From: an uncultured virus (IMG/VR IMGVR_UViG_3300013383_000003)
Lineage: Duplodnaviria; Heunggongvirae; Uroviricota; Caudoviricetes; Crassvirales
Virus record (IMG/VR): IMGVR_UViG_3300013383_000003
Strand: one strand, 5' to 3'
Length of the DNA stretch: 64,000 bases
Positions 5,308 through 48,818 of this stretch are shown here, in pieces. Numbering within the stretch: the first letter of the stretch is position 1; every line of letters starts with the position of its first letter. The position numbers and the translations under genes are program-made. The notes beneath the pieces were generated by a model. The model saw nothing but the letters and a program-made list of their open reading frames with translations, made no database searches and was not told the DNA's origin.

Positions 5308-5718
5308 ATGTCAGTAGTAATATCACCTGTAGGATTAGCAGCTGCTCCTGTAGCTAATGTTGCTAATATTATGGCTACTTTTAAAGAAAAATTGTGTAGA
5401 GCATATTGTGTAGATTCTACTATACAGCCTCAAGTATCTTTAGTTTATACTGTAGGTACTGCCAGACTTATAGAAAGTACTGTATTTATACCAATACAAG
5501 CAGTAATTACTATAGTAACACAAACAGAATGTTGTGGATGTAATGCTCACACACAGTTATTTACAGAAAACTTTGTAGTAGCTTTTCAAGGTCAGACAGC
5601 AGTTCCTACTACTATAACAGTAGCTAATATAGGAAGAGATGCCTTTGGCTCTAATATACATTGTGGTAAAGCCTATAGCTATACTATAAATGATTCTTTA
5701 ACTATAACAATTGCTTAA
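5308..5718 (+). CDS. hypothetical beta-rich, Cys-containing protein
   Basis: 136-aa ORF in the cassette, rich in V/T/A, with a CCGC motif. Confidence 0.7.
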   Translation: MSVVISPVGLAAAPVANVANIMATFKEKLCRAYCVDSTIQPQVSLVYTVGTARLIESTVFIPIQAVITIVTQTECCGCNAHTQLFTENFVVAFQGQTAVPTTITVANIGRDAFGSNIHCGKAYSYTINDSLTITIA

Positions 5719-5736
5719 TTTTAAAAATAGAATAAT

Positions 5737-6243
5737 ATGTTTTCAAATCTGAGAGCTAATAGTCAATTATATATATTACATAAAGATAATACTCCTTATG
5801 TAGAGATAGGGCAAGTAGTAAGTGTATCTCAGCCCATGCCAAGATACCAAGTTAATAATTTTATGTCACCACAAGAGTTAGTGGTAGATATAGTAGTAAA
5901 TGTTAATGGTAATAACATTACATTACAGAAGCTTCCTGCTAATTTAGATGTAGCAGACCAAGGAACTGCTAATGGTTCTCTGTTTATATCTACTACAAAA
6001 GAATCTATGAATAATGAGATAACCTTACTCAGACAGAAAAGCCTTGATATACTTAATAGCACTGACTATCACAAGAAAATAATACAGGATTGCGAGATAC
6101 TACTTCAAAGATTAAATCCTGAATTTGCAGAACAAAAACAACAAAAACAAGAGATTGATACTTTAAAGACTCAAATGTCTGAATTAATGTCTAATATGAA
6201 AGACTTAATGTCTCAGATAAAAAATGAAACAATAAAATCTTAA
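5737..6243 (+). CDS. hypothetical protein (beta N-domain plus coiled coil)
   Basis: 168-aa ORF in the cassette. Confidence 0.75.
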   Translation: MFSNLRANSQLYILHKDNTPYVEIGQVVSVSQPMPRYQVNNFMSPQELVVDIVVNVNGNNITLQKLPANLDVADQGTANGSLFISTTKESMNNEITLLRQKSLDILNSTDYHKKIIQDCEILLQRLNPEFAEQKQQKQEIDTLKTQMSELMSNMKDLMSQIKNETIKS

Positions 6244-6249
6244 TATACT

Positions 6250-6483
6250 ATGGGGAAAATATTTCGTGTTATTGATGAAGCAGATGATTATATGTATAAT
6301 CAGAGAGGCTATAGTCAGAGGGAATCTGATGAAAGAATGCTTGAAAAAGCTTTTAAAGAAGGTTGTGAGCATGGCTATAAGAAAGCCATGAGAGAGCTTG
6401 AGGGTTATGGTGAAAGAAGTTCTCATGCTTTTAGAGAAGGTTTTGAAGAAAAGTTAGAAAGACTTAAGAAACGGTATGAATAG
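6250..6483 (+). CDS. small charged hypothetical protein
   Basis: 77 aa, E/R/G/Y-rich, with an AF(K/R)EG repeat. Confidence 0.7.
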   Translation: MGKIFRVIDEADDYMYNQRGYSQRESDERMLEKAFKEGCEHGYKKAMRELEGYGERSSHAFREGFEEKLERLKKRYE

Positions 6484-7002: not shown

Positions 7003-8139
7003 ATGGAAGGATTATCACTAGATAATATTACAACAGGAGAAGAGGCAGCTGCACTCTTTTCAGAAGAAACACAGAATGAAAGTACTGAAGAGGTACAAAG
7101 TTCTGAAACAAATGAAGAAGGAGAAAATAAAACTACTGAGGTTATAGATGCAAGCAAATTGTTTGCAGAAGAGCCAGAGAGCGTAGGTAGTGAAGATAAT
7201 AGTAAGGAACAGGAAGATACCTCTTCTAAAGAGGTAACTTCTCCAAACTTCTACTCTTCCATTGCCAAAGCCTTTGCAGAGGATGGTATCTTCCAAAACC
7301 TTAATGATGATTCTCTTTCTAAGGTAAAAGATGCTGAAACTTTTAGAGATTTAATAGAGCAACAAATTAAATCGGAACTTGATGAGAGACAGCAAAGAAT
7401 TGATGATGCCCTTAATGCAGGAATAGAGCCTACAAGAGTACAACAGTATGAGAATAACATGAATATTCTTAATAGTATCTCTGATGAAGCTATTGAAGAA
7501 GAAGGAGAGAAAGGAGAAAACCTTAGAAAGAACATCATTTATGAAGATTATATACAAAGAGGTTTCAGTAAAGAAAGAGCTACTAAAGCAGTAGAGAGGT
7601 CTATAGCTGCTGGAACTGATATAGAAGATGCAAAAGAAGCATTGCAAAGTTGTAAGGAACAAGTTAAGAATGCTTACGATATTGCAGTGAAAGAAGCAAA
7701 GGAAGAAAAAGCAAATGAAGAGAAAGAGCTTTTAAATCAAGCAGAAGCTCTTAAAAATTCAATTCTTTCTGATAAAAAACCATTTGGAGATTTGGAGATA
7801 GATAAGAGTACAAGACAAAGAGTATTTGATGCTATAGCCAAACCAATTTATACAAATCCTAAGACAGGGGAAAGACTTACTGCTATACAAAAGTTTGAAG
7901 CAGAAAACCATAATGACTTTATGAAATATATAGGACTTACTTATGTATTAACTGATGGTTTTAAATCTCTTGATGGGTTAGTTAAAGGTAAAGTAAAGAA
8001 AGAAGTAAAGAAGGGTCTTAAAGAGTTGGAGCATACATTAAATAATACTGCAAGAAACTCGGATGGTACACTTAAATTTGCAAGTGGTGTAACCTCTGAC
8101 CCAGAATCTATGCTTAAGAATTTTACATTAGATATATAG
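7003..8139 (+). CDS. acidic capsid-assembly (scaffold-like) protein upstream of MCP
   Basis: Likely start is ATG 7003 (MEGLSLD). Very acidic N-terminus, coiled-coil body, directly before the MCP. Confidence 0.7.
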   Translation: MEGLSLDNITTGEEAAALFSEETQNESTEEVQSSETNEEGENKTTEVIDASKLFAEEPESVGSEDNSKEQEDTSSKEVTSPNFYSSIAKAFAEDGIFQNLNDDSLSKVKDAETFRDLIEQQIKSELDERQQRIDDALNAGIEPTRVQQYENNMNILNSISDEAIEEEGEKGENLRKNIIYEDYIQRGFSKERATKAVERSIAAGTDIEDAKEALQSCKEQVKNAYDIAVKEAKEEKANEEKELLNQAEALKNSILSDKKPFGDLEIDKSTRQRVFDAIAKPIYTNPKTGERLTAIQKFEAENHNDFMKYIGLTYVLTDGFKSLDGLVKGKVKKEVKKGLKELEHTLNNTARNSDGTLKFASGVTSDPESMLKNFTLDI

Positions 8140-8162
8140 TTTTATTTTTTTAATTTAATATT

Positions 8163-8219
8163 ATGGCAGGAAAACTTAACAAGTTTCAAATATCCCCAGT
8201 CTTTGAGGGATGGCAGGGT
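8163..8219 (+). CDS. MCP exon 1
   Basis: MAGKLNKFQISPVFEGWQG; ends in the U of the P1 U-G pair. Confidence 0.88.
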
Positions 8220-11200
8220 TGACCTAAAGTTAGGCCCTGGATAAATCGGGTAAAAACGGTGAAAGCCTTTTGGGGTGGTTAATACCGTGCTAATTTAATT
8301 AGTAATATAATTAAACAGTGTAACGCGTAGAGAATGAACCTTTGCTATCAATATATAGAGAAGTGTCTTTATAGTTATTTGTGAAAATAAATTTTAGTAA
8401 AGAATATAATTTCTCCAAGAGTGCCCGACACTTTAATAGAGTGAAAATGTACGCTGAGCTTACACAATAATAAAGTGTAAGAACCAAAGGATAAAAAGCC
8501 TTTGGGTTAACAAAATGCTAACAAAGTTGAATCACTTATCATCAGCTTTTGCTCTTGCACCACAGAAAGCTTCTAACCTTATGGTAGAACTATTGGCATA
8601 TAACAGGGGTAATACTCTTAATACTTATATCAGCAAATTGCCTGTACGCACTTTTCAGGATGATGGTGAGTATTATTGGGATATTATTACTAGTGCTAGA
8701 AAAAATATTCCTTTGGTTGAAGCTAGGGATGAAAATGGTACACAAATTACAGCTGCTTCTACAGGTATGGTAGGTGCTGGTACTGCACCCTTCTATTTGG
8801 TATTTGCAGAGGATTATTTCGCTAAATACTTTGGCGCATTATAATGTAAGTTATAATTGAAAATTGGGCAAAAACGGTGAAAGCTGAAATGCTAATACCG
8901 TGCTAATTTATAATGTAATAATTATAAATAGTGTAGAGAGTAGAGATTGAAACTATGCGAGGGTTTATTTATATTATAAAAAATGATATTAATTCAAAAG
9001 TTTACATAGGACAGACCACAAGAGCTTTAAAAGATAGATGGAAAGAACATTTAAGGACTAAATGCTCCAAGAATGAAAACAGTATGCTTATAAAAAAGGC
9101 TATCCATAAATATGGCTCTTCTCATTTTAGGATAGAGTTATTAGAAGTTTGTAATAAAGCTTCATTAAATGAAAGAGAGATGTATTACATACATCTATAT
9201 AATTCATATCATCAAGGGTATAATAGAACTTTAGGAGGACAATCTGGTTCTAAACCTATAAAACTTAAGAATAAACAAAATGAAATTGTTGAACTATATC
9301 AGTATGGTTTTTCAATTAAGTATTTAGCTCAAGAATATAATGTAGATAAAGCTACTATTAAACATGTGTTATTAATTAATAATGTGACTATTAGAGATAT
9401 TCGTTCTGTAAAATATTCTACAGAGGAGCGACAAGCTATATTAGAAGATACTAAGTTATTACCTAGAAATATAGTTATGAAAAAATGGAATATCTCAGCT
9501 AGTTATCTGTCACAACTTATAAATAACAAGCGTAGAATATAACATCTCCAAGAGTGTCCAACACCCTTGATATAGGGTGAAAATGTACTCCGAACTATAG
9601 AGAATAAAATCTATAGAATTAAAGGATAAAGAGCCTTTAAGTTAACATATGAAAGGAGAGGTAATTTTTGGTAACCTAAATCAAGTATATCCTATTAGAA
9701 TATTGGATGATGCAAGGCTTGAAGGAAGTAATGTGGTTTATCGGGTAGAGCTTATGGGTGGTAACCAAGCTGGTATACCTGTAGATAGACTGCAAGCTGG
9801 TGAAAGATTCTCTGTAGGATTTGCTCCTGTAGAAAGAGAGCTGTCAAGAAAAGTAGGAAGTGTAAGATTTAATACACCAGTATCTATGCGCAATGAATGG
9901 ACTACTATTAGAATACATGCCAAAGTTTCAGGTGCTATGCTTAATAGAAAATTGGCTGTAGGTATTCCTATGAAGGATGAAAATACAGGTAAGACATTTA
10001 TTGCTAATAAGTGGATAAACATAGTGTGTTCACTTGCAGCGTAAGTTGCAAAAAATAAATTCCTCTAATTGCTGGAAACTCCTGTTAGAGTATTTATACT
10101 ACAAGTAAAAACAAAATAGTACATTAAATGTAAGGAATTATGACCAATGTAGAAATTGTAAAAAATATAAAGGGTTTTGAAGGAAGATATACAATATCTA
10201 ATCTAGGTATTGTAAGAAGTTTACTTACTAATAAAGTAATGAAACTTAGCATAACTTCTAAAGGTTATGCTAGAGTAAATCTTCGATATGCACATAGTAG
10301 AAAATTTAAGGCTTTCTTAGTACATAGATTAGTAGCAGGTAATTTTATTCCTAATCCTAATCATTATAAGGAATTAAATCATAAAGACTGTAATAGATTA
10401 AATAATAATGTCTCTAATTTAGAGTGGTGTGATAGAAGCTATAATGTGAAATATTCATATTCAAAAGGCAAAGCTTCAAATAAAGGAGAAAAGAATCCAA
10501 ATGCTAAGCTAAATTCTAAAGATGTTATGATTATAAAAGCTATGCTAAAATCTAGAAAATATAGTCAAACTTATATAGCAAAGCTTTTTAAGGTACATCC
10601 TAATACAATTGGAATGATTAATACCAAAAATACTTGGAGTGATAATTAAATACTAGGGACAATCAGCAGCTAAGACTTATTGTGAAATAAGTAAAGTTCA
10701 ACGACTAGTAAGTCCTCTTAATGAGGCATAAGCCTAAGTAGGCTGAAATGGGGAACCCCTTTTAGGGTGAAGATATAGTCTAATCTTAATGGAAACATTA
10801 AGCTGGAAACAGGATTAATAGTAACGACATTAATTAAATAGTATAGTAATATACAATGGCACTATATGGATTGGGTATTGGAGCAGCAATGGGAAGACTA
10901 CAAGAATCTTGCAATGGCTTGGGGTACTTCAAACCGTAATGCTAATGGCCAATACCTTAACTTTGGTGATTCAGGAGAAGCTATCAGGATGGGTAGTGGT
11001 CTTTTTGAACAAATGGAAGTTGCTGGTACTCAATATTATACAAACTTCTCATTGAAAATGATTGAGAATGCTCTTACAGAACTTGTGGCTAATTCTAACC
11101 TCCCTATGAAGGATAGAGTATTTGTACTTAGAACAGGTCTTAGAGGAGCTACTCAATTTAGTAAAGCAGTGGGTGATACTGTATCAGGGTGGACTCAATT

Positions 11201-12940
11201 TACAGTAAATGCAGATAACTTAGGCATTGTGCAGAAGACAAATAATGTAATACATCCTAATGCTCTTGCAGCAGGTTATCAATTTACTGAATTTAGAGCA
11301 CCTAATGGTATAATCATTAAAGTTGAAGTCGACAATTTTTATGATGACCCTGTAAGCAATAAGATGCAGCATCCTCTCGGAGGTCCTGCAAGTTCATATA
11401 GATATGACATTATGGAGATTGGTACTCCAGACCAGCCTAAATTATATTGGGCCTCATAGAGGTAACTCTATGATAAACTTTGAGCAAAAACGGTGAAATC
11501 TTCCAAGAATATTTGGGATATTAAATACATTAGAGAATGTAGAGAAAAGAAAGGTATGAGAAATAGAGATATTTATTCTTTATATCCTAATGTATCACAT
11601 ACTGCTATAGACCAGGTATTAAACTATAAAAGTTATAGATAACACCGTGCTAACTTAATATTTAACATTATTAAGTAGTGTAGAGAGTAGGACTTGAAAC
11701 TATTAATAGAATATAATAGTCCCACGAGTGTTCAACATCTGTACAATATAGTACAGATGAAAATGTACTCCGAACTATAGTGATGGCAAAACTATAGAGT
11801 ATCAAGATAAAGAGCTTGGTAGATAACATTATTTGAATATAATAAAGTGTGAGATTGAAGGACAACCTGAGTATAGAGGTATTCAAGCTGGTATGAGGAA
11901 TCCTTTTACAGGAGCTATGGAAAATAACTTTATGAGTACTGACGAGGATAAACAATTAATGTCCCTTAGTATAGAAATATACTAAAGCAAACAGGGCAAA
12001 AACGGTAAAAATCTATTTGAAATATTAAGTAATATATTCTATATACATGAGTAGTTTAGATTATAAATATATAAAAGGTTATAATAATAAATATTATATC
12101 ACTAGAGATGGTAAAGTATATATCTCTAATTATAGAAATACAGGTAAGCCTAAAGAAATGAAACCTAGAATAATAGCTGGATATTTAGCTTTAGGATTGG
12201 AAGGAAATACTGTAGAAGGTATTAGGAATCAAAAGATACATAAAATACATAGACTTATAGCAGAAGCTTTTGTTCCAAATCCAGAAAATAAGCCTTGTAT
12301 TAATCATATTAATGGTAATAAATTAGATAATAGAGTTGAAAATTTAGAGTGGGTTACTATAGAAGAAAATACTAGACATGCCTATGCTAATAAACTGGCA
12401 CAATGTTGGTGGACTAAAGAGCTAGGAATTGTATGTATAAACTTAATAGAAAATTACAAATATAACTTTGCAGATGTTGCAAGATTATATAAGCTAAGTT
12501 CTAGACAAAATATCTGTTGGTTTTGGAAAAGTGGTTACAAAACTTTTAATCTAAAACATTCTAACCCTTTTATTCCAAAACATAGTAAAAAGTTACCAAT
12601 ATCAGAGGAATATAAAAAATATATATTAAAGTTACTTGAAGACAATACCGTGCTAAATAATCTTTCTAAAAGAAGATTATCAGTGTAACGAGTAGTAGCT
12701 GAACCCCTTTTAACTAAGGGAATATAATGTTACCACGAGTGTCCTGCACCTTAATTATAAACATAAAAGGTGATAATATACTCTAAACTTATAGGATAAT
12801 AAACTATAAGAGCTACAGATAAAGAGCTGTAGGATAATTACAATTTGAGTGCAACTATTCATAAAATGGCTACATTTGGTGTAGCAGTTCTTGACCCAAC
12901 AAGAACTATGTCCTTTATACCGTCTATATTACAAGGTTAA
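8163..12940 (+). CDS. major capsid protein, spliced: join(8163..8219,8518..8823,9652..10016,10859..11438,11836..11949,12848..12940), 504 aa
   Basis: Exons sum to 1515 nt and give one open frame: MAGKLNKFQ...WQG|LTKLNHL...DYFA|KGEVIF...NKWM|HYMDW...PDQP|NIIKC...TDED|SATIHKM...PSILQG*. Recognisable as a crAss-like MCP. Confidence 0.93.
8220..8517 (+). mobile_element. group I intron 1 (298 nt, no ORF)
   Basis: P1 CAGGGU/GCCCUG, P10 GUUAG/CUAAC, P3 UCGGGUA/UGCCCGA, P4 ACGGU/ACCGU, P7 GCGUA/UACGC; terminal G 8517. Confidence 0.92.
8518..8823 (+). CDS. MCP exon 2
   Basis: LTKLNHL...AEDYFA, 102 codons. Confidence 0.9.
8824..9651 (+). mobile_element. group I intron 2 (828 nt) with GIY-YIG endonuclease
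   Basis: P1 CGCU/GGCG, P10 CUUU/AAAG, P3 UUGGGCA/UGUCCAA, P7 GAGUA/UACUC; terminal G 9651. Confidence 0.92.
8955..9542 (+). CDS. intron-encoded GIY-YIG homing endonuclease
   Basis: GFIYIIKN..NSKVYIGQT, RWKEH, E..YI and GYN motifs; C-terminal HTH repeats. Confidence 0.92.
   Translation: MRGFIYIIKNDINSKVYIGQTTRALKDRWKEHLRTKCSKNENSMLIKKAIHKYGSSHFRIELLEVCNKASLNEREMYYIHLYNSYHQGYNRTLGGQSGSKPIKLKNKQNEIVELYQYGFSIKYLAQEYNVDKATIKHVLLINNVTIRDIRSVKYSTEERQAILEDTKLLPRNIVMKKWNISASYLSQLINNKRRI
9652..10016 (+). CDS. MCP exon 3
   Basis: KGEVIFGN...IANKW plus AT (phase-2 junction). Confidence 0.9.
10017..10858 (+). mobile_element. group I intron 3 (842 nt, different core type) with HNH endonuclease
   Basis: P1 AAGUGGAU/GUUCACUU and P10 AUAGUGU/GCACUAU; core AAUUGCUGGAAA..AAUCAGCAG..GUUCAACGACUA..AAGAUAUAGUCU; terminal G 10858. 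Confidence 0.92.
10140..10649 (+). CDS. intron-encoded NUMOD4-HNH homing endonuclease
   Basis: IKGFEGRYTISNLGIVRS, VHRLVA..FIPNP, NHKDCNRLNN.VSNLEW; C-terminal HTH. Confidence 0.92.
   Translation: MTNVEIVKNIKGFEGRYTISNLGIVRSLLTNKVMKLSITSKGYARVNLRYAHSRKFKAFLVHRLVAGNFIPNPNHYKELNHKDCNRLNNNVSNLEWCDRSYNVKYSYSKGKASNKGEKNPNAKLNSKDVMIIKAMLKSRKYSQTYIAKLFKVHPNTIGMINTKNTWSDN
10859..11438 (+). CDS. MCP exon 4
   Basis: G plus HYMDWVLEQQ...IGTPDQP. Confidence 0.9.
11439..11835 (+). mobile_element. group I intron 4 (397 nt) with decayed endonuclease remnant
   Basis: P1 GCCU/GGGC, P10 UUAUAUU/AAUAUAA, P3 UUGAGCA/UGUUCAA, P7 GAGUA/UACUC; terminal G 11835. Confidence 0.9.
11517..11642 (+). pseudogene. remnant of homing endonuclease C-terminal HTH
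   Basis: DIKYIRECREKKGMRNRDIYSLYPNVSHTAIDQVLNYKSYR*, in the same loop that holds the intact HNH gene in intron 5; no nuclease domain. Confidence 0.6.
11836..11949 (+). CDS. MCP exon 5 (missed by ORF track)
   Basis: NIIKCEIEGQPEYRGIQAGMRNPFTGAMENNFMSTDED. Confidence 0.88.
11950..12847 (+). mobile_element. group I intron 5 (898 nt) with HNH endonuclease
   Basis: P1 GGAU/GUCC, P3 CAGGGCA/UGUCCUG, P4 ACGGU/ACCGU, P7 GAGUA/UACUC; terminal G 12847. Confidence 0.9.
12047..12688 (+). CDS. intron-encoded HNH homing endonuclease
   Basis: IHRLIAEAFVPNPENKPCINHINGNKLDNRVENLEWVT; the C-terminus (EDNTVLN...SV) overlaps the ribozyme core. Confidence 0.92.
   Translation: MSSLDYKYIKGYNNKYYITRDGKVYISNYRNTGKPKEMKPRIIAGYLALGLEGNTVEGIRNQKIHKIHRLIAEAFVPNPENKPCINHINGNKLDNRVENLEWVTIEENTRHAYANKLAQCWWTKELGIVCINLIENYKYNFADVARLYKLSSRQNICWFWKSGYKTFNLKHSNPFIPKHSKKLPISEEYKKYILKLLEDNTVLNNLSKRRLSV
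12848..12940 (+). CDS. MCP exon 6 (missed by ORF track)
   Basis: SATIHKMATFGVAVLDPTRTMSFIPSILQG*. Confidence 0.88.
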   Translation, partial: SATIHKMATFGVAVLDPTRTMSFIPSILQG

Positions 12941-12960
12941 TAGGACTATAAAATATAAGT

Positions 12961-12991
12961 AAAAAGGGGAGGAAGAATCCTCTCCTTTTTT
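12961..12991 (+). terminator. terminator after MCP
   Basis: AAAAAGGGGAGGA-AGAA-TCCTCTCCTTTTTT. Confidence 0.85.
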
Positions 12992-13014
12992 AAATATAAA
13001 AAGATAATATAAAT

Positions 13015-13989
13015 ATGGCAAAGGAAGAGATAGAAGGAGTACTTAATAGTACTGAAAATAGTGAAACAGAAATGCCTAAAACAGGCAAAAGAGGTAGAAA
13101 AGCAACAGTTGAAGAAGAGGAACGCCCTTTAATAAACTGTCTTAGGAATGAAAGAGTAATAGTAAGACATATTAATAAACCTAATAGCAGAATTACTAAT
13201 CCAAAGCATGTGCTATATGGAGGTATGGCAGAAGGTGCAAAGAGGATTTTCTGTGTTCCTATGTTATCTTCAGGAAGATACGTTAATGTGCTTACAGATG
13301 ATGAAAAGAAGTTTCTTGAAAATATAATGGGGCTTGAGCCTAATGCTCTTAGTATCTATAGAAAGGTAGACAACTTCTGGGACGATAGTAATAGTACAGG
13401 TATATCAAAAGTAGTACTCGGTAAACAAGATAATTATCTTGATTTAAGTACCCCAGAAGATTATATCAAATATAAAATATTACTTGCTAATAAAGAGTAT
13501 ATAGCACCTTCCTTAGAGGAGCTTGAAAATATGCATAAAGCTACTTATCAATTTGTTATAATCACAGAAAGTTCTGAGTCTAAGATGGCACAAGATAATA
13601 TGTCTGTTACTATGAAATGTTATACTATGTATGGTAAACTTGAAGATAATATAGGAGCATTAAGACATATTGTAGAAACTCTTACAGGTAATAGATTTTC
13701 ATCTGTTACAAAAAAAGAGTTTCTTCAAACTAAGATTAATGAACTTATTCAAGCTAATCCAAAAACATTCCTCAAAGTAGCAACTGACCCAATGCTTAAT
13801 ACCAAAGTATTGATTAAAAAATGTGTTGAAGCAGGTCTTATAGCACAAAGAGGTAATCAGTACTATATTAGAGAAGGTAATGTGCCTATGTGTGATAATG
13901 GTGACCCTACATTAAATGTAGCTGCACAATGGCTTAATTTACCAAAGAATCAAACAATAAAACTTAGTTTAGAAGCTAAGTTACAATAA
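13015..13989 (+). CDS. conserved crAss-like protein following MCP
   Basis: 324-aa ORF; position in the capsid module. Confidence 0.7.
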   Translation: MAKEEIEGVLNSTENSETEMPKTGKRGRKATVEEEERPLINCLRNERVIVRHINKPNSRITNPKHVLYGGMAEGAKRIFCVPMLSSGRYVNVLTDDEKKFLENIMGLEPNALSIYRKVDNFWDDSNSTGISKVVLGKQDNYLDLSTPEDYIKYKILLANKEYIAPSLEELENMHKATYQFVIITESSESKMAQDNMSVTMKCYTMYGKLEDNIGALRHIVETLTGNRFSSVTKKEFLQTKINELIQANPKTFLKVATDPMLNTKVLIKKCVEAGLIAQRGNQYYIREGNVPMCDNGDPTLNVAAQWLNLPKNQTIKLSLEAKLQ

Positions 13990-27303: not shown

Positions 27304-28599
27304 ATGGCAATAACAATAACAAGCAGATTTAAGCCTTTTACATATGAAGAGCTTATAAGGCCATTACTACAATATAGAGAAGCTTATGATAAAGTAGAAG
27401 CAGACTATACTACTTTAGCTACACAAGCTGAAGCATGGAAAGATGCTGCTAATAGGGAAACTAATCCCGAAGCATATAAAGCTTATACTAAATATACAGA
27501 TGACCTTAATAAAATTATAGAAGACTTTAGTAAAGGTATGAATCTTAATAATAGCAATACTCTTAATATGAAAAGAAGATATGCTAGTGAAATTATGCCT
27601 ATAGCTAAAGCTGCAGAAGCACAAAGAGAAGCTAATGACCTAAGAGTAAAAGCAGGTCCTGATGCCATATTTGAAGTTGGTAACTATAATTCTTTAGATA
27701 ATTTTCTTAATGGCAAGGTGGCTAATAACAATTATATAAGCAAAGAAGCTCTAATGAAAAGAACTGCCATGGAAACAGAAGCTGCCATGCAAGCTGCTAT
27801 GAATAATATTGAGTTTAGAAAGATATTAGGTGACCAATATTGGGAAATGGTACAGCATAATGGGGGTTCTTATACAGACCTTAGGGATGCTATAGTTAAT
27901 AACCCCCAAGCTCAAAGTATATTTTCTGAAATTAAAAAGCAGGTAATGCAGGACTCAGGATATAATAGATATGATGATAGAGGAAAACAAGCTATAGAAG
28001 AAGCTATAAATACTGGGTTATATGCAGGACTTGATAAGCCAGCTAGGTCATTCCAGGCTAATCAAGCTTATCTTAATCCTTTACAAGCAGAAAGCCTACG
28101 CCAATCTAGAGAAGAGTTTAAATGGAAACAAGATGCCAGAGAACCTATTTCTATAGGAGATAGCTCTTACTTAGACCCTATTACAGGACTTACATTTACT
28201 AAGGATGCTGCAGGAAAGAGAATCTATGATTTAACTTATAAAAAGAATCCTAATAGTTCTACTGGAAAGAGCTCATCTGTAAGTTCAGGAAGTAAAGGTG
28301 GAGGAAGCACTTCTAACAGAGAATATAGACCTAAAGGAGTTACTGTATATGACACAGAAGATGGCAGAGTAATAGAACATGATGTTACTGGTGCTTTAGA
28401 CTTAGAAGACTATAAAGTTATTCCTTATAAGGAGCTGTCAGACCATGATAAAAAAATAGTAGATAAGCATCTTAATGGTGCTACTCCTAATGGGGTAACT
28501 GTTTATAGAAAACATGGACATTTGGCTGTAATAACTAATCCTTCAGAGATAATACCTACAGGGGATAATACTGATACAGGAGAGCATACTGATATTTAA
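27304..28599 (+). CDS. virion cargo/ejection protein 2
   Basis: N-terminus SRFKPFTYEEL..P; helical, no Cys. Confidence 0.6.
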   Translation: MAITITSRFKPFTYEELIRPLLQYREAYDKVEADYTTLATQAEAWKDAANRETNPEAYKAYTKYTDDLNKIIEDFSKGMNLNNSNTLNMKRRYASEIMPIAKAAEAQREANDLRVKAGPDAIFEVGNYNSLDNFLNGKVANNNYISKEALMKRTAMETEAAMQAAMNNIEFRKILGDQYWEMVQHNGGSYTDLRDAIVNNPQAQSIFSEIKKQVMQDSGYNRYDDRGKQAIEEAINTGLYAGLDKPARSFQANQAYLNPLQAESLRQSREEFKWKQDAREPISIGDSSYLDPITGLTFTKDAAGKRIYDLTYKKNPNSSTGKSSSVSSGSKGGGSTSNREYRPKGVTVYDTEDGRVIEHDVTGALDLEDYKVIPYKELSDHDKKIVDKHLNGATPNGVTVYRKHGHLAVITNPSEIIPTGDNTDTGEHTDI

Positions 28600-46000: not shown

Positions 46001-48818
46001 TCTTATTGTCTAAGTTTTTACCAAGAGCATCTACTATATAGTATAAAGCACTGTACATCTTTCGGTAATTCTCATTATTAAGATTTTGTTTTACCATATC
46101 TGGAGTAACATAATATCCTAATATATTTGAGATATAACCTAATGTATTGGCGACTTCATTTTTATTAGCCTCATTATTAATATCATATCCAGAATGCTTA
46201 AATTTTTCCAAGCTTTCAAAGGCTTCTTTCAGCTCTTTATAATTATGTCTATTAATACCTTCAGAAGTAAATAAAGGGTGCTCTCCTACTTTATATTGTG
46301 TAGTAATTTGTGTTATAGCTTCTGTAAGAGCTGGGTTATTATTTACTATAATACTTTTATATTTACCATTTTCTTTAATTACTACAGAATAAGGTTGGAA
46401 ATGCTTGCAAAAGGTACTAAAAAACTGACTTTGAAAATCACTTTCTTTGCCTGTAGTATCTATAAGTCTTTCTATAACTTGTTTAAGCCAAGGATTTTTA
46501 TTTTGTTGTTCTTGTAACTTTGCTACCATGTCCTCAAGAGTTAATGCACCTTGTGTTAACCTCAATATAGTATTAGTAGCTTGTCTTACATTAACTCTCT
46601 CTTTTATACCAAATTCAGAAACTATAGGATTACCATTATTATCTAGTTGATAGCATTGCAATAAAGCTTTCTTTACTAGTTGTGACATGCTTCCTAGCAC
46701 ATCTAGGCATCTTGATTCAATTTGCCAATGTTCTTGTAGATTACCCTCTGCTTCCTCTACACTATCTGAATCATTAGATTCATTAAAGTTATCAGCATCT
46801 GCAAATATATCTTCATTTACCTCATTAACCTTACCATCATTAGAAGATACTATACTAAAATTCTCTGTATTTAAGAATGTATTTTGTGCTATAGCCATTA
46901 TAGCTTCCCAGTTATCTGTAATAGCAGTAGCTTTGTCTATAGTATCAAAGCTATCAAAATCATTATTTTCAGGAGAAAACTTTTGTTTACACATCTCCAT
47001 AATGTTATCTACACCTATAGTTCTGACTACATCAGCTCTAGACATTGCAGAGAAATTTTTTCCTTCAAATCTATCTCCATAGATAGTTTTAGCTAACTCT
47101 GGATTCTCCTGTAATTCAGTAATATGGTCTGAAATCCAATATACAGCTTGTTCAGCTATATGTCTTACTTCTGTTGCAGAAAGGAGATTATCATTAAGAA
47201 GATTATCTATTTGCTTTATTATTTTTTGCTGTTTTGTTATATAAGAATCTTCAGTGGAGAGTTTATCATTGTCAAAGTAATCACTACTACCTGTATAATC
47301 ATCAATACCTCCCCTTAAATCCTTATTAGCAGCATTAAAGTACTCTTGAGATATAGACATAATCTCTTCTAAAGCAGAGTTTTTAAGTTCTATCCCTTGT
47401 GCTTTGAATACTTTATTAAATAGATTTGTGATATAGTTTATAAACCTTTTAAAAGCATTCTCTTTCTTATCTATCTTTATTTTACTAAGCACTATTTGAA
47501 ATTCTCTATTAGTTAGAGCTTCAGCTATAAATTCTTTAGCATTAGTTAAACCATACCATTCAGTTCCTTTTAATTGCTCTTTGCATTGAAGATATAAATT
47601 CCATGTATTAGTTGCAAACTCTGTTTGTGCCTCATTAAATCCTTTTATTTTAGACCAAGAAGGATGATAATTTAAGATTTCAGCAGTAACAGAATGTACC
47701 AATTCATGTGTTAATACCTTCATTAGATTTCCTTTTATATTATTTCTATCATCAGTCATTAGATATTCTAATAATAATGAAGGATTGAATCTTATAGTAG
47801 CTGTTTTAAAACCATCTTGCTTTCTTGCTGCTATACTAGGTAAAGAAGAGTCTATCACTATATTAATAGGAATATCATTATTCCTTAATATCCCAACTAT
47901 TTGTTTAAATAGTTGGTGATAAGGATTGTCAGGTTTTGCTTTACTTAAAAGGTCATCTATTAAGGAATTATCAAGAGTTACACCTTCTTGTTTTAGTATT
48001 TCTAAAGCATTTTCACTTTCTTGCTTAGCCTTTTCACTAGAATAATAATCCTCTCTTTCAAGTAATTTAAGGTCTTTATTTATCTCTTCTTGCCTTGCAG
48101 TAGCTTGCTCTGTATGCCATCCTTTTACTAAATCCTCTATTAAATTAGGATTCTCCAATTTACTTAGAAGATTTTCAAGTCTAGATAGGTTGTGAATAAT
48201 ATTACCATAATTATCTACTCTAACATTAGTATTATATTCTCTATTAAAAGCAGCTACTTTTTTTCTTAATGCTCCTACTTTTCTTTTTAATGGAAGAAAC
48301 TCAAAGTCTCTCTTAGCTATCTCCATTAAACCAAGAACATTATTTAAAGCTCTTACTTTTCGTTTTACAGCATCTATTCTATTATCTATAGTGTTTCTTA
48401 AAGAAGATTCAGATTCTCCATCATAAGAAATATCAAGTTCATTATCTCTATAATAATCTATATTATAATTAGCAGGCCTTCCAACAACTACATCATAAGT
48501 ATTATTTTTCTTTTCTATAATAGACACACTATTATCTCCAAAGAATTTCTTTGCATTAGTAGCTTCTACATTAGCCATTTCTAATGTAAGACAGTTAATA
48601 GGAGAAGAGTATTGTTTTCTCCATAATTCTATAATATCTTTATTACCCTCAAAAGGTTTTGGCTTTAAAAGATTATTTACCTCTTCTACTGTAGGAAATC
48701 TATCATTATTCTCAGCATTTTGTCTTTTATGAATAATTAATTCCAGCATAGGAGAAGAAATATCTACTTTATTAAGGAGGTATTTAAACTCCTTTGAACT
48801 AGTATTTACACAACTCAT
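40005..48818 (-). CDS. single-chain virion RNA polymerase (two-barrel) with N-terminal zincin domain
   Basis: 2937 aa; GYRIPTE and GSDYDIDK (catalytic DxDxD), ASSVDAVKDP, THELVH...EFIAE. Confidence 0.92.
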   Translation of the reverse strand: MSCVNTSSKEFKYLLNKVDISSPMLELIIHKRQNAENNDRFPTVEEVNNLLKPKPFEGNKDIIELWRKQYSSPINCLTLEMANVEATNAKKFFGDNSVSIIEKKNNTYDVVVGRPANYNIDYYRDNELDISYDGESESSLRNTIDNRIDAVKRKVRALNNVLGLMEIAKRDFEFLPLKRKVGALRKKVAAFNREYNTNVRVDNYGNIIHNLSRLENLLSKLENPNLIEDLVKGWHTEQATARQEEINKDLKLLEREDYYSSEKAKQESENALEILKQEGVTLDNSLIDDLLSKAKPDNPYHQLFKQIVGILRNNDIPINIVIDSSLPSIAARKQDGFKTATIRFNPSLLLEYLMTDDRNNIKGNLMKVLTHELVHSVTAEILNYHPSWSKIKGFNEAQTEFATNTWNLYLQCKEQLKGTEWYGLTNAKEFIAEALTNREFQIVLSKIKIDKKENAFKRFINYITNLFNKVFKAQGIELKNSALEEIMSISQEYFNAANKDLRGGIDDYTGSSDYFDNDKLSTEDSYITKQQKIIKQIDNLLNDNLLSATEVRHIAEQAVYWISDHITELQENPELAKTIYGDRFEGKNFSAMSRADVVRTIGVDNIMEMCKQKFSPENNDFDSFDTIDKATAITDNWEAIMAIAQNTFLNTENFSIVSSNDGKVNEVNEDIFADADNFNESNDSDSVEEAEGNLQEHWQIESRCLDVLGSMSQLVKKALLQCYQLDNNGNPIVSEFGIKERVNVRQATNTILRLTQGALTLEDMVAKLQEQQNKNPWLKQVIERLIDTTGKESDFQSQFFSTFCKHFQPYSVVIKENGKYKSIIVNNNPALTEAITQITTQYKVGEHPLFTSEGINRHNYKELKEAFESLEKFKHSGYDINNEANKNEVANTLGYISNILGYYVTPDMVKQNLNNENYRKMYSALYYIVDALGKNLDNKTYTPFTFKSEGSIVGNVREFLKPITEGLEDTMVSAFYDSGKMYQSYITPSYMTKLITKFKQKGESFDNFIMSEYGNSEWFHNGTDIERGWRNAWLKALVTDRKSREIFSHKVQLNFDKHNYMKNMDNLQYTLSLITEYFSEATNDTQSKVPAWFRVPMLSNKPSSEFIRFYSERGVNYKDTLTNGFMDIFNQELSRIQTVMMRNLDSKDPRFIKNFDKNGKKFCFLDFMNDYLIGKKKDSELGKLLKDKIDGKEIDEAQLYKLAYDAIYDTMETRAKAIVEQWNDNGIVKAAKKITGIGSSKAEIMHNLENFVWNDTFAAMNIIELTITDIAYYKDAEDLQKRLAQLHSPGIRANINVLDYKGQRVTDGKTRTLYLKDFDNFISNIIDNISVVFDKKIAEAPREQKTALKALKESLVGKDGAYRKINVADAQGYASPTSYRKKALMFGKWSTKAEEIYQKLRKGDYNYSDLNIAFQPLKPFVYSQHEMSSGVSEAPITNLKVPVQNKNSEYLLIMADAILQGENTGRPNLLRAIYEVMENSHYDADGNYKTDGIDTVQFESTVKSGLHGAIDINKYINDANGEAKAKAVLEACIYKTEPITTQRLNSVTGEVETIAIESKSTEYNPDYVDTLDLEDYTLQQEVPEHFKNHEQMHGSQLRYIIVSELADKDAYGNEVTYNVEGRKLSAEEFKKEYEDTIAANIEESLKELSEELHLNDYNAKERNIALSKLLQREILSSSRYSIDLLQACSVDENGKFRIPLGDPIQSKRVEQLINSIIKNRVNKQEIKGGPVVQVTNFGTSRELNIRFKDKNGGLLKTREEWQSSKKTTTPIEPIYTTIAPYYNTKITESNKEEITNKIQKIFLDKAQEVANNLGISIASFSKNIGGFQFQEGETVGTQVRELSYTFELNTTDKSKADLFASIMGDLGYEQQEAVISYNSANSEEAADALALKIKVKNADNVPDILEKSGFMDYTFNETTNEITLLAFSKNADEFGDNIELLIQNLKDNYVGTEKEYIQSRYLDKEARRETYETWSKERKLSKGKDRDSSDKKALGFYAKKILNTEGKNRETEYLEYVKENQGGIAYYEVFAPIYTNELFNQFADKEGNINIEAIEALDPDLLKMIGYRIPTESKYSIAPMKIVGFLPREAGDGIMMPYDITLINGSDYDIDKAYLMLKDLNIKRTKTSKSGLHKILYDSLVESQSGKLSFELKQQLGDLVSMFLDNPFSKNALVNQRTAEGVMSLPEGAYNKMLRLYLQNAYTIEKPTEGRIYRNNKIVDMTYEVLTQESSAAEMLNPGGFEPQKRMGYLITATKNTDMSYEQLSKMKTEDLKNLAVKGKNLMFIDTHVQFYKQNNAAGALIGIFAVNRVAHAVIENEGYKVNVFNACGVGESFTIGNMTFTHKMTIDPRNNIKGESLGKVLGCLVASSVDAVKDPVLNLMNINSNTANILITLIRLGMPFEDASLFLSQNIITEVLNEYNKANITGNTPLYNIVERLKNKIIKDAHITKESALNKEALTKKELIQGLKEGTQEINYKVLIALQNLLKLSQSLQLLTFATRYNSITSAVGPLIIDNLIAKYKALKLVLESNILDARETPIGLTELLEKHPILKQFSKSYDIANELFKGMPANSIGFREILNYIFENNSYLLGNRKILSDLSDFYQSYLLTANGTINKDELYYYITKFPKEFYNKKYKAQYSDNALIQAIKYDTDKAGRMVLKIDTTGLDSTYKETLSSAWIDLHRKNPELSEKLFKYCFFRGGIGFNPKTFISLTPVYVKERIKGYVDTYRLLPKVVPEVVYDQFVRNNWDNNKLVPIKEGIRWVEQGDNIIITDQDSLDIVGNAQYFKIKTEDSYKIYKLTYKAEGTRAYKEVKPLGSNKDYVEITDVSKNPIENFDSLMDDTIDYGEIFPTTTDTQDAEITQSKQEQVDLLHRIFMTDGKTFEEAEATIQEAKSLPAEQKESMETRIKDFLRRRLTELKVPYNEESLNKEFEKLC

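Follow-up and report, generated by a model that had tools for sequence, protein, structure and literature searches.

What interrupts the major capsid protein (MCP) gene in an uncultured virus of the Crassvirales, IMG/VR record IMGVR_UViG_3300013383_000003, and did the interruptions spread from one invader or arrive separately? The stretch of this record analyzed here (64,000 nucleotides, hereafter the window) belongs to a crAss-like phage, as judged by blastn of positions 8000-13000 against GenBank phages, which matches crAss-like phages, and its nearest relatives are the Steigviridae (crAss001, cr116_1). The MCP gene occupies positions 8163-12940 and consists of six exons separated by five group I introns. 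The interpretation developed below, in which we have high confidence, is that this single crAss-like capsid gene carries five group I introns from two homologous lineages, which are mobile and mostly site-specific.

To delineate the gene, the MCP of crAss001 (gp32), whose own gene is uninterrupted, was compared to the window by tblastn, yielding six collinear pieces. Intron borders were placed using these alignments in conjunction with the rule of a U at the end of the exon and a G at the end of the intron, as well as the pairings P1 and P10; the outermost borders, 8220 and 12847, agree with the limits proposed in a first-pass annotation made by a model from the letters alone. Insertion sites are numbered in crAss001 residues throughout, families A and B denote the two intron lineages, and R1 and R2 are their covariance models. 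The gene is made up of the following features:

8163-8219, plus strand: MCP exon 1 (19 codons); tblastn match to crAss001 MCP amino acids 1-18
8220-8517, plus strand: intron 1, family A, 298 nt, MCP site 18/19; R1, 178.6 bits
8518-8823, plus strand: MCP exon 2; PF23898, E = 1.5e-28, and tblastn
8824-9651, plus strand: intron 2, family A, 828 nt, MCP site 119/120; R1, 55.3 + 73.2 bits, and P1/P10
9652-10016, plus strand: MCP exon 3; PF23898, E = 8.5e-41, and tblastn
10017-10858, plus strand: intron 3, family B (T4/Twort-like IA2 lineage), 842 nt, within MCP codon 244; R2, 95.9 bits
10859-11438, plus strand: MCP exon 4; PF23898, E = 7e-68, and tblastn
11439-11835, plus strand: intron 4, family A, 397 nt, MCP site 436/437; R1, 127 bits
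11836-11949, plus strand: MCP exon 5; PF23898, E = 1.2e-7, and tblastn
11950-12847, plus strand: intron 5, family A, 898 nt, MCP site 474/475; R1, 116 bits
12848-12940, plus strand: MCP exon 6 with its stop codon; 80.6% identical to crAss001 amino acids 475-505 by tblastn

Once joined, the exons amount to 1515 nt, comprising 504 codons and a single terminal stop with zero internal stops, and the spliced product is 62.9% identical to the crAss001 MCP over residues 1-504. All five exon pieces that were scanned (exon 1 is too short) match successive parts of the Pfam profile PF23898 (Crass_capsid); its cut-off of 27 bits is exceeded by four of them and narrowly missed by exon 6 (25.2 bits). Tblastn with the crAss001 MCP revealed no other capsid gene in the window. 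About 25 nt past the capsid stop, a G+C-rich hairpin and the run of T that comes after it (12966-12991) resemble an intrinsic terminator; weak Rfam matches to small-RNA families at 12872-13033 were attributed to this hairpin and discarded.

The splice junctions follow the expected pattern for group I introns. In all five cases, the intron is preceded by an exon U and terminates in G, and P1, in which the guide pairs with the last 4-7 exon bases, places a U.G wobble at the junction. A P10 of 4-8 bp, pairing the start of the next exon just upstream of the guide, is present in four of the five introns. For instance, P1 of intron 1 joins 8214-8219 with 8234-8239 and its P10 joins 8518-8522 with 8229-8233, while P1 and P10 measure 7 and 7 bp in intron 3, and 4 and 8 bp in intron 4; P1 of intron 5 is 4 bp long. 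Since P1 fits every site, the proposal of the first-pass annotation that each guide sequence is tailored to its own exon is confirmed. Each intron would leave the late mRNA by self-splicing, in a guanosine-initiated two-step reaction for which the guide would hold the end of one exon, with U.G at the cleavage point, and, except in intron 5, also the first bases of the next. Intron 1 has no P2 hairpin, which is present in introns 2, 4, and 5, and its P1 guide nearly abuts P3 (8220-8245).

These features bear on the possibility that the interruptions are not working introns at all, and that the phage is defective or mis-assembled, its capsid gene decaying as a pseudogene. Such a reading could draw on the fact that splicing is here a prediction from sequence, that Rfam is silent on all five introns, and that an open frame in intron 4 resembles no recognizable protein. 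It is, however, most improbable, given that the exons join in frame to a full-length MCP devoid of internal stops, that the guide sequences suit each site, that tblastn reveals no other capsid gene in the window, that the intron helices keep pairing through compensatory change, and that same-site introns recur in other contigs and in GenBank phages.

Introns 1, 2, 4, and 5 belong to one family, designated family A. The motif ACCGTGCTAA has exactly four copies in the 64 kb, one in each of these introns, and when one mismatch is allowed, 6 matches are found versus 1.25 expected, and 6 is reached in 0 of 100 shuffles. A pattern scan on the 3′ core located at least 122 IMG/VR loci; an initial pattern, ACCGTGCTAA...GTGTA, had been dropped as too loose, with 34 matches among 116 loci passing a filter that required a second family motif on either side. 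From 32 members lacking an open reading frame (ORF), including intron 1, a family alignment was built with MAFFT, for which RNAalifold returned a structure containing P3, P4, P5, P6/P6a, a two-part hairpin between P7 and P3′, P8, P9, and P9.1, with compensatory changes in 41 of its 51 pairs. Addition by hand of the P7 pseudoknot (six pairs and one bulged base, with two pairs covarying, A-U/G-C and C-G/A-U) brought the full structure to 57 pairs, 43 of which are changed on both sides. Across this structure, 96.6% of cells are paired; shuffles give 72.5%, with 0 of 500 attaining the real figure, and sliding the partners by 1-3 columns gives 32-42%. The P3-P9 core of family A, including the P3/P7 pseudoknot, is therefore backed by covariation. 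The domain between P7 and P3′ consists of an outer stem, compensatory in all five of its pairs, around an internal loop with the conserved sequence GAAUAUAA, plus an inner stem, and the loop of P9.1 is of the GAUAAAGAGC type. Intron 1, which has no ORF, gave an energy z-score of -2.78 when folded alone.

The covariance model R1, with 211 positions trimmed from 230, was derived from this family. In addition to the scores given above, of which that of intron 1 comes from a seed member, the model separates the two ORF-divided parts of intron 2 (55.3 bits at 8869-8985 and 73.2 bits at 9485-9639), and its matches span 11608-11820 in intron 4 and 12638-12832 in intron 5, whereas intron 3 receives only 15 bits, from a match covering P8-P9. 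Elsewhere in the window, R1 and R2 gave only weak matches (27880-27942 and 46980-47074, both on the minus strand, 746-856, 907-920, and 12964-13035), which were taken as chance; the first of these lies in coding-looking sequence. The first-pass annotation had recognized a motif set common to the four introns, and had claimed that they remain under selection to fold. The motif set is borne out by the one-per-intron distribution of ACCGTGCTAA, the P3 and P7 pairings that it gave across the four introns are exact as written, and selection on folding is supported by compensatory change in the counts for both the 32 members and the four introns themselves; the shuffles supply independent support for the pairings.

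Intron 3 carries UGCUG/CAGCA and GACUA/UAGUC, as was noted at first pass, and these are its P4 and P7. By inspection, P3 joins 10060-10065 with 10750-10755, P4 joins approximately 10070-10075 with 10663-10668, and P7 joins 10703-10707 with 10776-10780. Blastn with its 3′ core matches introns of Staphylococcus, Vibrio ICP1, and Bacillus phages. A pattern scan for this second family, family B, located at least 121 IMG/VR loci, and the covariance model R2 was built from 37 ORF-less members, whose structure has 40 pairs, 33 of them with double changes, and 90.1% of cells paired versus 63.1% in shuffles. In the window, R2 assigns 95.9 bits to intron 3 (10628-10819) and 19.4 bits to intron 5, with introns 1, 2, and 4 not among the matches listed. 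R2 also finds the introns of T4 (nrdD, 123.8 bits; nrdB, 79.8 bits; td, 77.2 bits), three tandem introns just downstream of the tail-sheath gene of Twort (156, 136, and 63 bits), and introns in all five of the SPbeta, DT1, r1t, LL-H, and SPO1 records (38-140 bits). The three Twort introns are presumably the orf142 introns of Landthaler and Shub (1999).

The introns of T4 (td, nrdB, and nrdD) and Twort are hence family-mates of intron 3, at 63-156 bits by R2, and the likeness of family A to them is weak. Over the seven records (T4, Twort, SPbeta, DT1, r1t, LL-H, and SPO1), R1 yields at most 46 bits, with its top match in Twort, and no intron of T4 was matched by R1. Two consecutive hairpins stand between P7 and P3′ in the RNAalifold consensus of family B and in intron 3 as aligned to R2, an arrangement of two hairpins, P7.1 and P7.2, that is described as a hallmark of subgroup IA2 (PMC4227781). 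Intron 3 also shares with the classical phage IA2 introns an HNH gene in a peripheral loop, and differs from those of T4 and Twort in residing in the capsid gene of a Bacteroidota-type phage. Thus, the strong R2 matches to introns of T4, Twort, and other phages, together with the weak R1 matches there, indicate that intron 3 belongs to the classical phage IA2 lineage and that family A is another clade.

The two families also fare differently with the Rfam model RF00028. In a control, RF00028 detected the introns of T4 nrdD (105 bits) and Twort (101, 97, and 64 bits), scored nrdB below threshold at 35.7 bits, and did not find T4 td. Applied to 12 IMG/VR loci that contain a family A intron free of ORFs and to bajarodcaudo virus 1 (L004), it gave family A at best 21.3 bits and no family A match at the gathering score, versus 77-81.5 bits for family B introns in those same loci. 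One of these loci with a family A intron at site 120 (L119) has a second group I intron at 119-452 on the minus strand, scored by RF00028 at 81.5 bits, which is probably of family B and located further along the same capsid gene. A 2025 intron database was seeded from RF00028 (PMC11835236).

Although distinct, the families are homologous, as sister lineages in group IA. The group IA layout is common to them, as are a supplementary domain separating P7 from P3′ and the J3/4, P4′-P6, and J8/7 motifs; the main structural contrast is between the two side-by-side hairpins of family B and the one two-part hairpin of family A. R2 reaches 46.6 bits on a family A intron in bajarodcaudo virus 1, and R1 reaches 46 bits on an intron of Twort. 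In addition, several introns are hybrids. Intron c of bajarodcaudo virus 1 (5465-6380, MCP site 292/293) combines a family A-like P3-P6 with the P7 GACUA/UAGUC, and scores 40-42 bits with R1, 27-30 bits with R2, and 32 bits with RF00028, while three IMG/VR introns (L260, L347, and L360) combine P4-P7 of family B with the single hairpin of family A and the CAAGAGUG motif, and suggest modular exchange or a continuum between the families. These last three introns also show a CCAAGAGUG motif before P3′. UGCUG/CAGCA and GACUA/UAGUC are covarying states of P4 and P7, and the claim made at first pass, that intron 3 is of a different type with an unrelated core, stands as regards a separate lineage (15 bits by R1 versus 95.9 by R2) and fails as regards the word unrelated, in view of the cross-matches and hybrids.

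How far the families differ in formal rank is less clear-cut. Under the 14-subgroup scheme, all five introns could be IA2 or IA, in which case the split between A and B would be a lineage difference inside one subgroup and "different type" would be an overstatement; this is a possible reading, although we lean away from it. It is favored by the common extra domain and motifs, by cross-matches of up to about 46 bits in both directions, by the four hybrid introns (intron c, L260, L347, and L360), and by the reported heterogeneity of phage IA2 introns, for which the scheme is described as needing revision (PMC11878797, NAR 2025). It is disfavored by the single two-part hairpin in family A versus the two of IA2 (PMC4227781), by the detection of family B and not of family A by RF00028, and by the strongly reciprocal scores of R1 and R2. 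Under a coarse scheme, all five introns might simply be labeled IA or IA2. In the Michel-Westhof scheme, a P7.1/P7.1a arrangement is typical of IA1.

The second part of the question, how four introns of one family came to reside in one gene, was addressed through insertion sites and phylogeny. Based on tblastn segment ends, so that positions in the relatives are approximate, the capsid genes of the window phage and its relatives have about eleven distinct insertion sites, those outside the window being at ~61/62, 148/149, 292/293, 337-341, 404, and 456. The same MCP gene is split, with introns of both families, in bajarodcaudo virus 1, cr116_1, and cr111_1. In bajarodcaudo virus 1, introns occupy site 18/19 (179.8 bits by R1), a position near site 120, and site 456, the last of these being of family B; in all three phages the window sites 244, 436/437, and 474/475 are empty.

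Two trees were computed. In the first (3′ segments, 86 rows, 117 columns, quick search), intron 1 groups with two site-19 introns (its same-site relatives, intron a of bajarodcaudo virus 1 and L065) and with L105, with a starred support of 96; intron 2 falls in a 12-row clade in which 11 rows are at sites 120-122, also starred at 96; and intron 5 groups with L150, a site-475 intron, and with L147, starred at 97. Introns 1, 2, and 5 thus group with same-site capsid introns of other phage contigs. In the second tree (60 rows and 192 columns from three concatenated core blocks, careful search), introns 2 and 4 stand in a 4-row clade with site-120 introns (96/90), inside a clade of capsid-gene introns (98/89). 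In each of these blocks, site-120 introns are the best matches of intron 4 or are among them; for the 18-nt block, the top match is L105. Identical 3′ core segments were observed for window introns 5 and 2 in L130 and L131 (both on one 7238-bp IMG/VR contig) and L106, indicating that a near-identical phage is present in IMG/VR.

The first-pass annotation had proposed that one ribozyme lineage colonized four sites of the same gene. In its full form, one lineage would have multiplied inside this gene, leaving the four introns as mutual closest kin, and an unrelated second type would have arrived separately. That all four introns fall under one family model and that introns 2 and 4 share a 4-row clade (96/90) agree with this account, and constraining the four introns to a clade in the 3′ segments alone, at a cost of 52 log-likelihood units, is not rejected by the approximately unbiased (AU) test (p = 0.064). 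With the concatenated cores, however, the four-intron clade is rejected (AU p = 0.013, log-likelihood 51 lower), core identity among introns 1, 2, 4, and 5 is 63-75%, with introns 1 and 2 having relatives elsewhere at 81-84%, the same-site clades are starred, and intron 3 is not unrelated, given the cross-matches and hybrids. Multiplication inside the gene is therefore improbable as an explanation of the whole set: one family is upheld, a single in-gene lineage is not, and only intron 4 is seen as an offshoot within the gene.

The preferred reading is instead one of several arrivals from a shared pool, with homing keeping the introns site-specific. Introns 1, 2, and 5 represent site-specific lineages that other crAss-like phages also carry, and intron 4 would have split off ectopically from the site-120 lineage, its guide being retargeted; we moderately favor a within-gene jump from site 120 to site 437 as its origin. 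Most introns keep to their sites across phages, which is better accounted for by homing from phage to phage at co-infection than by a burst in one genome.

Some points weigh against the overall interpretation, beginning with the AU result for the first tree. In that tree, intron 4 is on a long branch, apart from intron 2, and the second tree has an unsettled bootstrap and lacks the introns that share a site with introns 1 and 5, which were dropped by the block filters. The P10 of intron 5 is weak, comprising 3 bp that are non-adjacent. For the four window introns, all 156 of 156 cells pair over P3, P4, P6, P7, P7.1, P9, and P9.1, with double changes in 20 of the 39 pairs, but these helices were delimited by eye and by regular expression with the sequences in view, so that the 100% arises partly by construction and the family-wide counts are fairer. 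The family alignments were themselves built from pattern scans that fix some motifs, and P7 of family B is invariant by construction of its scan. An Rfam scan gave no group I match in the window at the gathering score, nor in 8000-13100 at E <= 10; we read this miss as a gap in the model and not as evidence against the fold. Finally, gene structure, family membership, covariation, and phylogenetic placement are direct results of the analysis, and the splicing of the five introns, the activity of the endonucleases, and the direction of the proposed transfers are predictions.

Mobility is suggested by the genes within the introns, three of which carry a homing endonuclease gene:

8955-9542, plus strand: GIY-YIG homing endonuclease gene, 195 amino acids, with a helix-turn-helix (HTH) tail, in intron 2; GIY-YIG, E = 4.2e-10; HTH_7, 5.7e-5; phrog_7168, 1.4e-24
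10140-10649, plus strand: HNH homing endonuclease gene, 169 amino acids, with NUMOD4, HNH_3, and HTH, in intron 3; NUMOD4, E = 5.9e-11; HNH_3, 3.3e-6; phrog_59, 2.8e-46
11493-11642, plus strand: open frame of 49 codons in the P5 loop of intron 4, coding doubtful; its GTG "start" belongs to P4
12047-12688, plus strand: HNH homing endonuclease gene, 213 amino acids, in intron 5; HNH_3, E = 8.1e-12; phrog_59, 4.6e-37

The GIY-YIG gene is placed in the loop of the P7-P3′ hairpin of intron 2; it begins directly past the 5′ strand of this hairpin and ends with a stop codon inside the conserved GAATATAA motif. The HNH genes of introns 3 and 5 are 30% identical (E = 4e-13), belong to the same phrog_59, and are both in the P5 loop, despite the ribozymes being of different families; that of intron 5 extends through P4′, P6, and P6a and ends in J6/7. 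Because the genes of introns 2 and 5 overlap ribozyme elements, their translation and the folding of the intron would compete. The P5 loop of intron 4 holds an insert of ~145 nt, the frame of which has no Pfam or PHROGs match (the best Pfam match at a loose setting, with an E-value of 0.043, is below threshold); the idea that it is a remnant of an endonuclease HTH tail was rejected, as it has no significant similarity to the other intron ORFs. At co-infection, the GIY-YIG enzyme of intron 2 and the HNH enzymes of introns 3 and 5 would carry their introns into intron-less capsid alleles.

Intron-split capsid genes have been reported before in crAss-like phages. Yutin 2021 (PMC7886860) describes Delta-group phages with group I introns in three genes (MCP, PolB, and primase) and one Zeta-group MCP in five fragments, findings repeated in a 2023 review (PMC10136315). 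As in the window, the MCP introns of those phages come with endonuclease genes, and it was through endonuclease domains that the introns of the Delta and Zeta groups were located. Unlike those cases, the window phage is nearest to the Steigviridae and has five introns, whose RNA cores were modeled and sorted into two lineages. Similarly, in Bastillevirinae (PMC11878797), which are different phages with other core genes affected, two or three group I introns interrupt a gene, nuclease type is decoupled from intron clade, and one gene has been colonized sequentially by distinct introns.

In the GenBank records of the relatives (L002, L003, and L004; MT774389, MT774387, and PQ006092), the capsid pieces are annotated as separate coding sequences named "major capsid protein" or "hypothetical protein", and no intron features are annotated in the regions retrieved. 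Endonuclease genes lie between the capsid pieces of cr116_1, cr111_1, and bajarodcaudo virus 1, and whole-record scans place introns of families A and B in several genes of these three phages. Matches to family A also occur among GenBank phages in phiCD211, phiCP39-O, CB457P1, PJN02, and bajarodcaudo; R1 found none in phiAGATE at E <= 1e-4. No literature linking these five phages to the term "group I intron" was found, although such reports may exist. A broader proposal, in which family A forms an extensive and so far not separately recognized clade of group I introns in phages, one that surveys seeded from RF00028 would under-count because the model does not detect it, and in which intron 4 is a natural jump from site 120 to site 437 with a rewritten guide, is put forward tentatively and, taken as a whole, is rather unlikely.

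Since intron-split capsid genes of crAss-like phages are already published (Yutin 2021, PMC7886860), the existence of the window case changes little by itself. What is worth keeping is a tested, RNA-level picture of two homologous, strongly covarying intron lineages in one essential late gene, and the capsid gene of these phages emerges as an intron hotspot. Family A, the commoner family, escapes RF00028, such that annotation will go on presenting these capsid genes in pieces and family A will be missed by any intron census that relies on this model.

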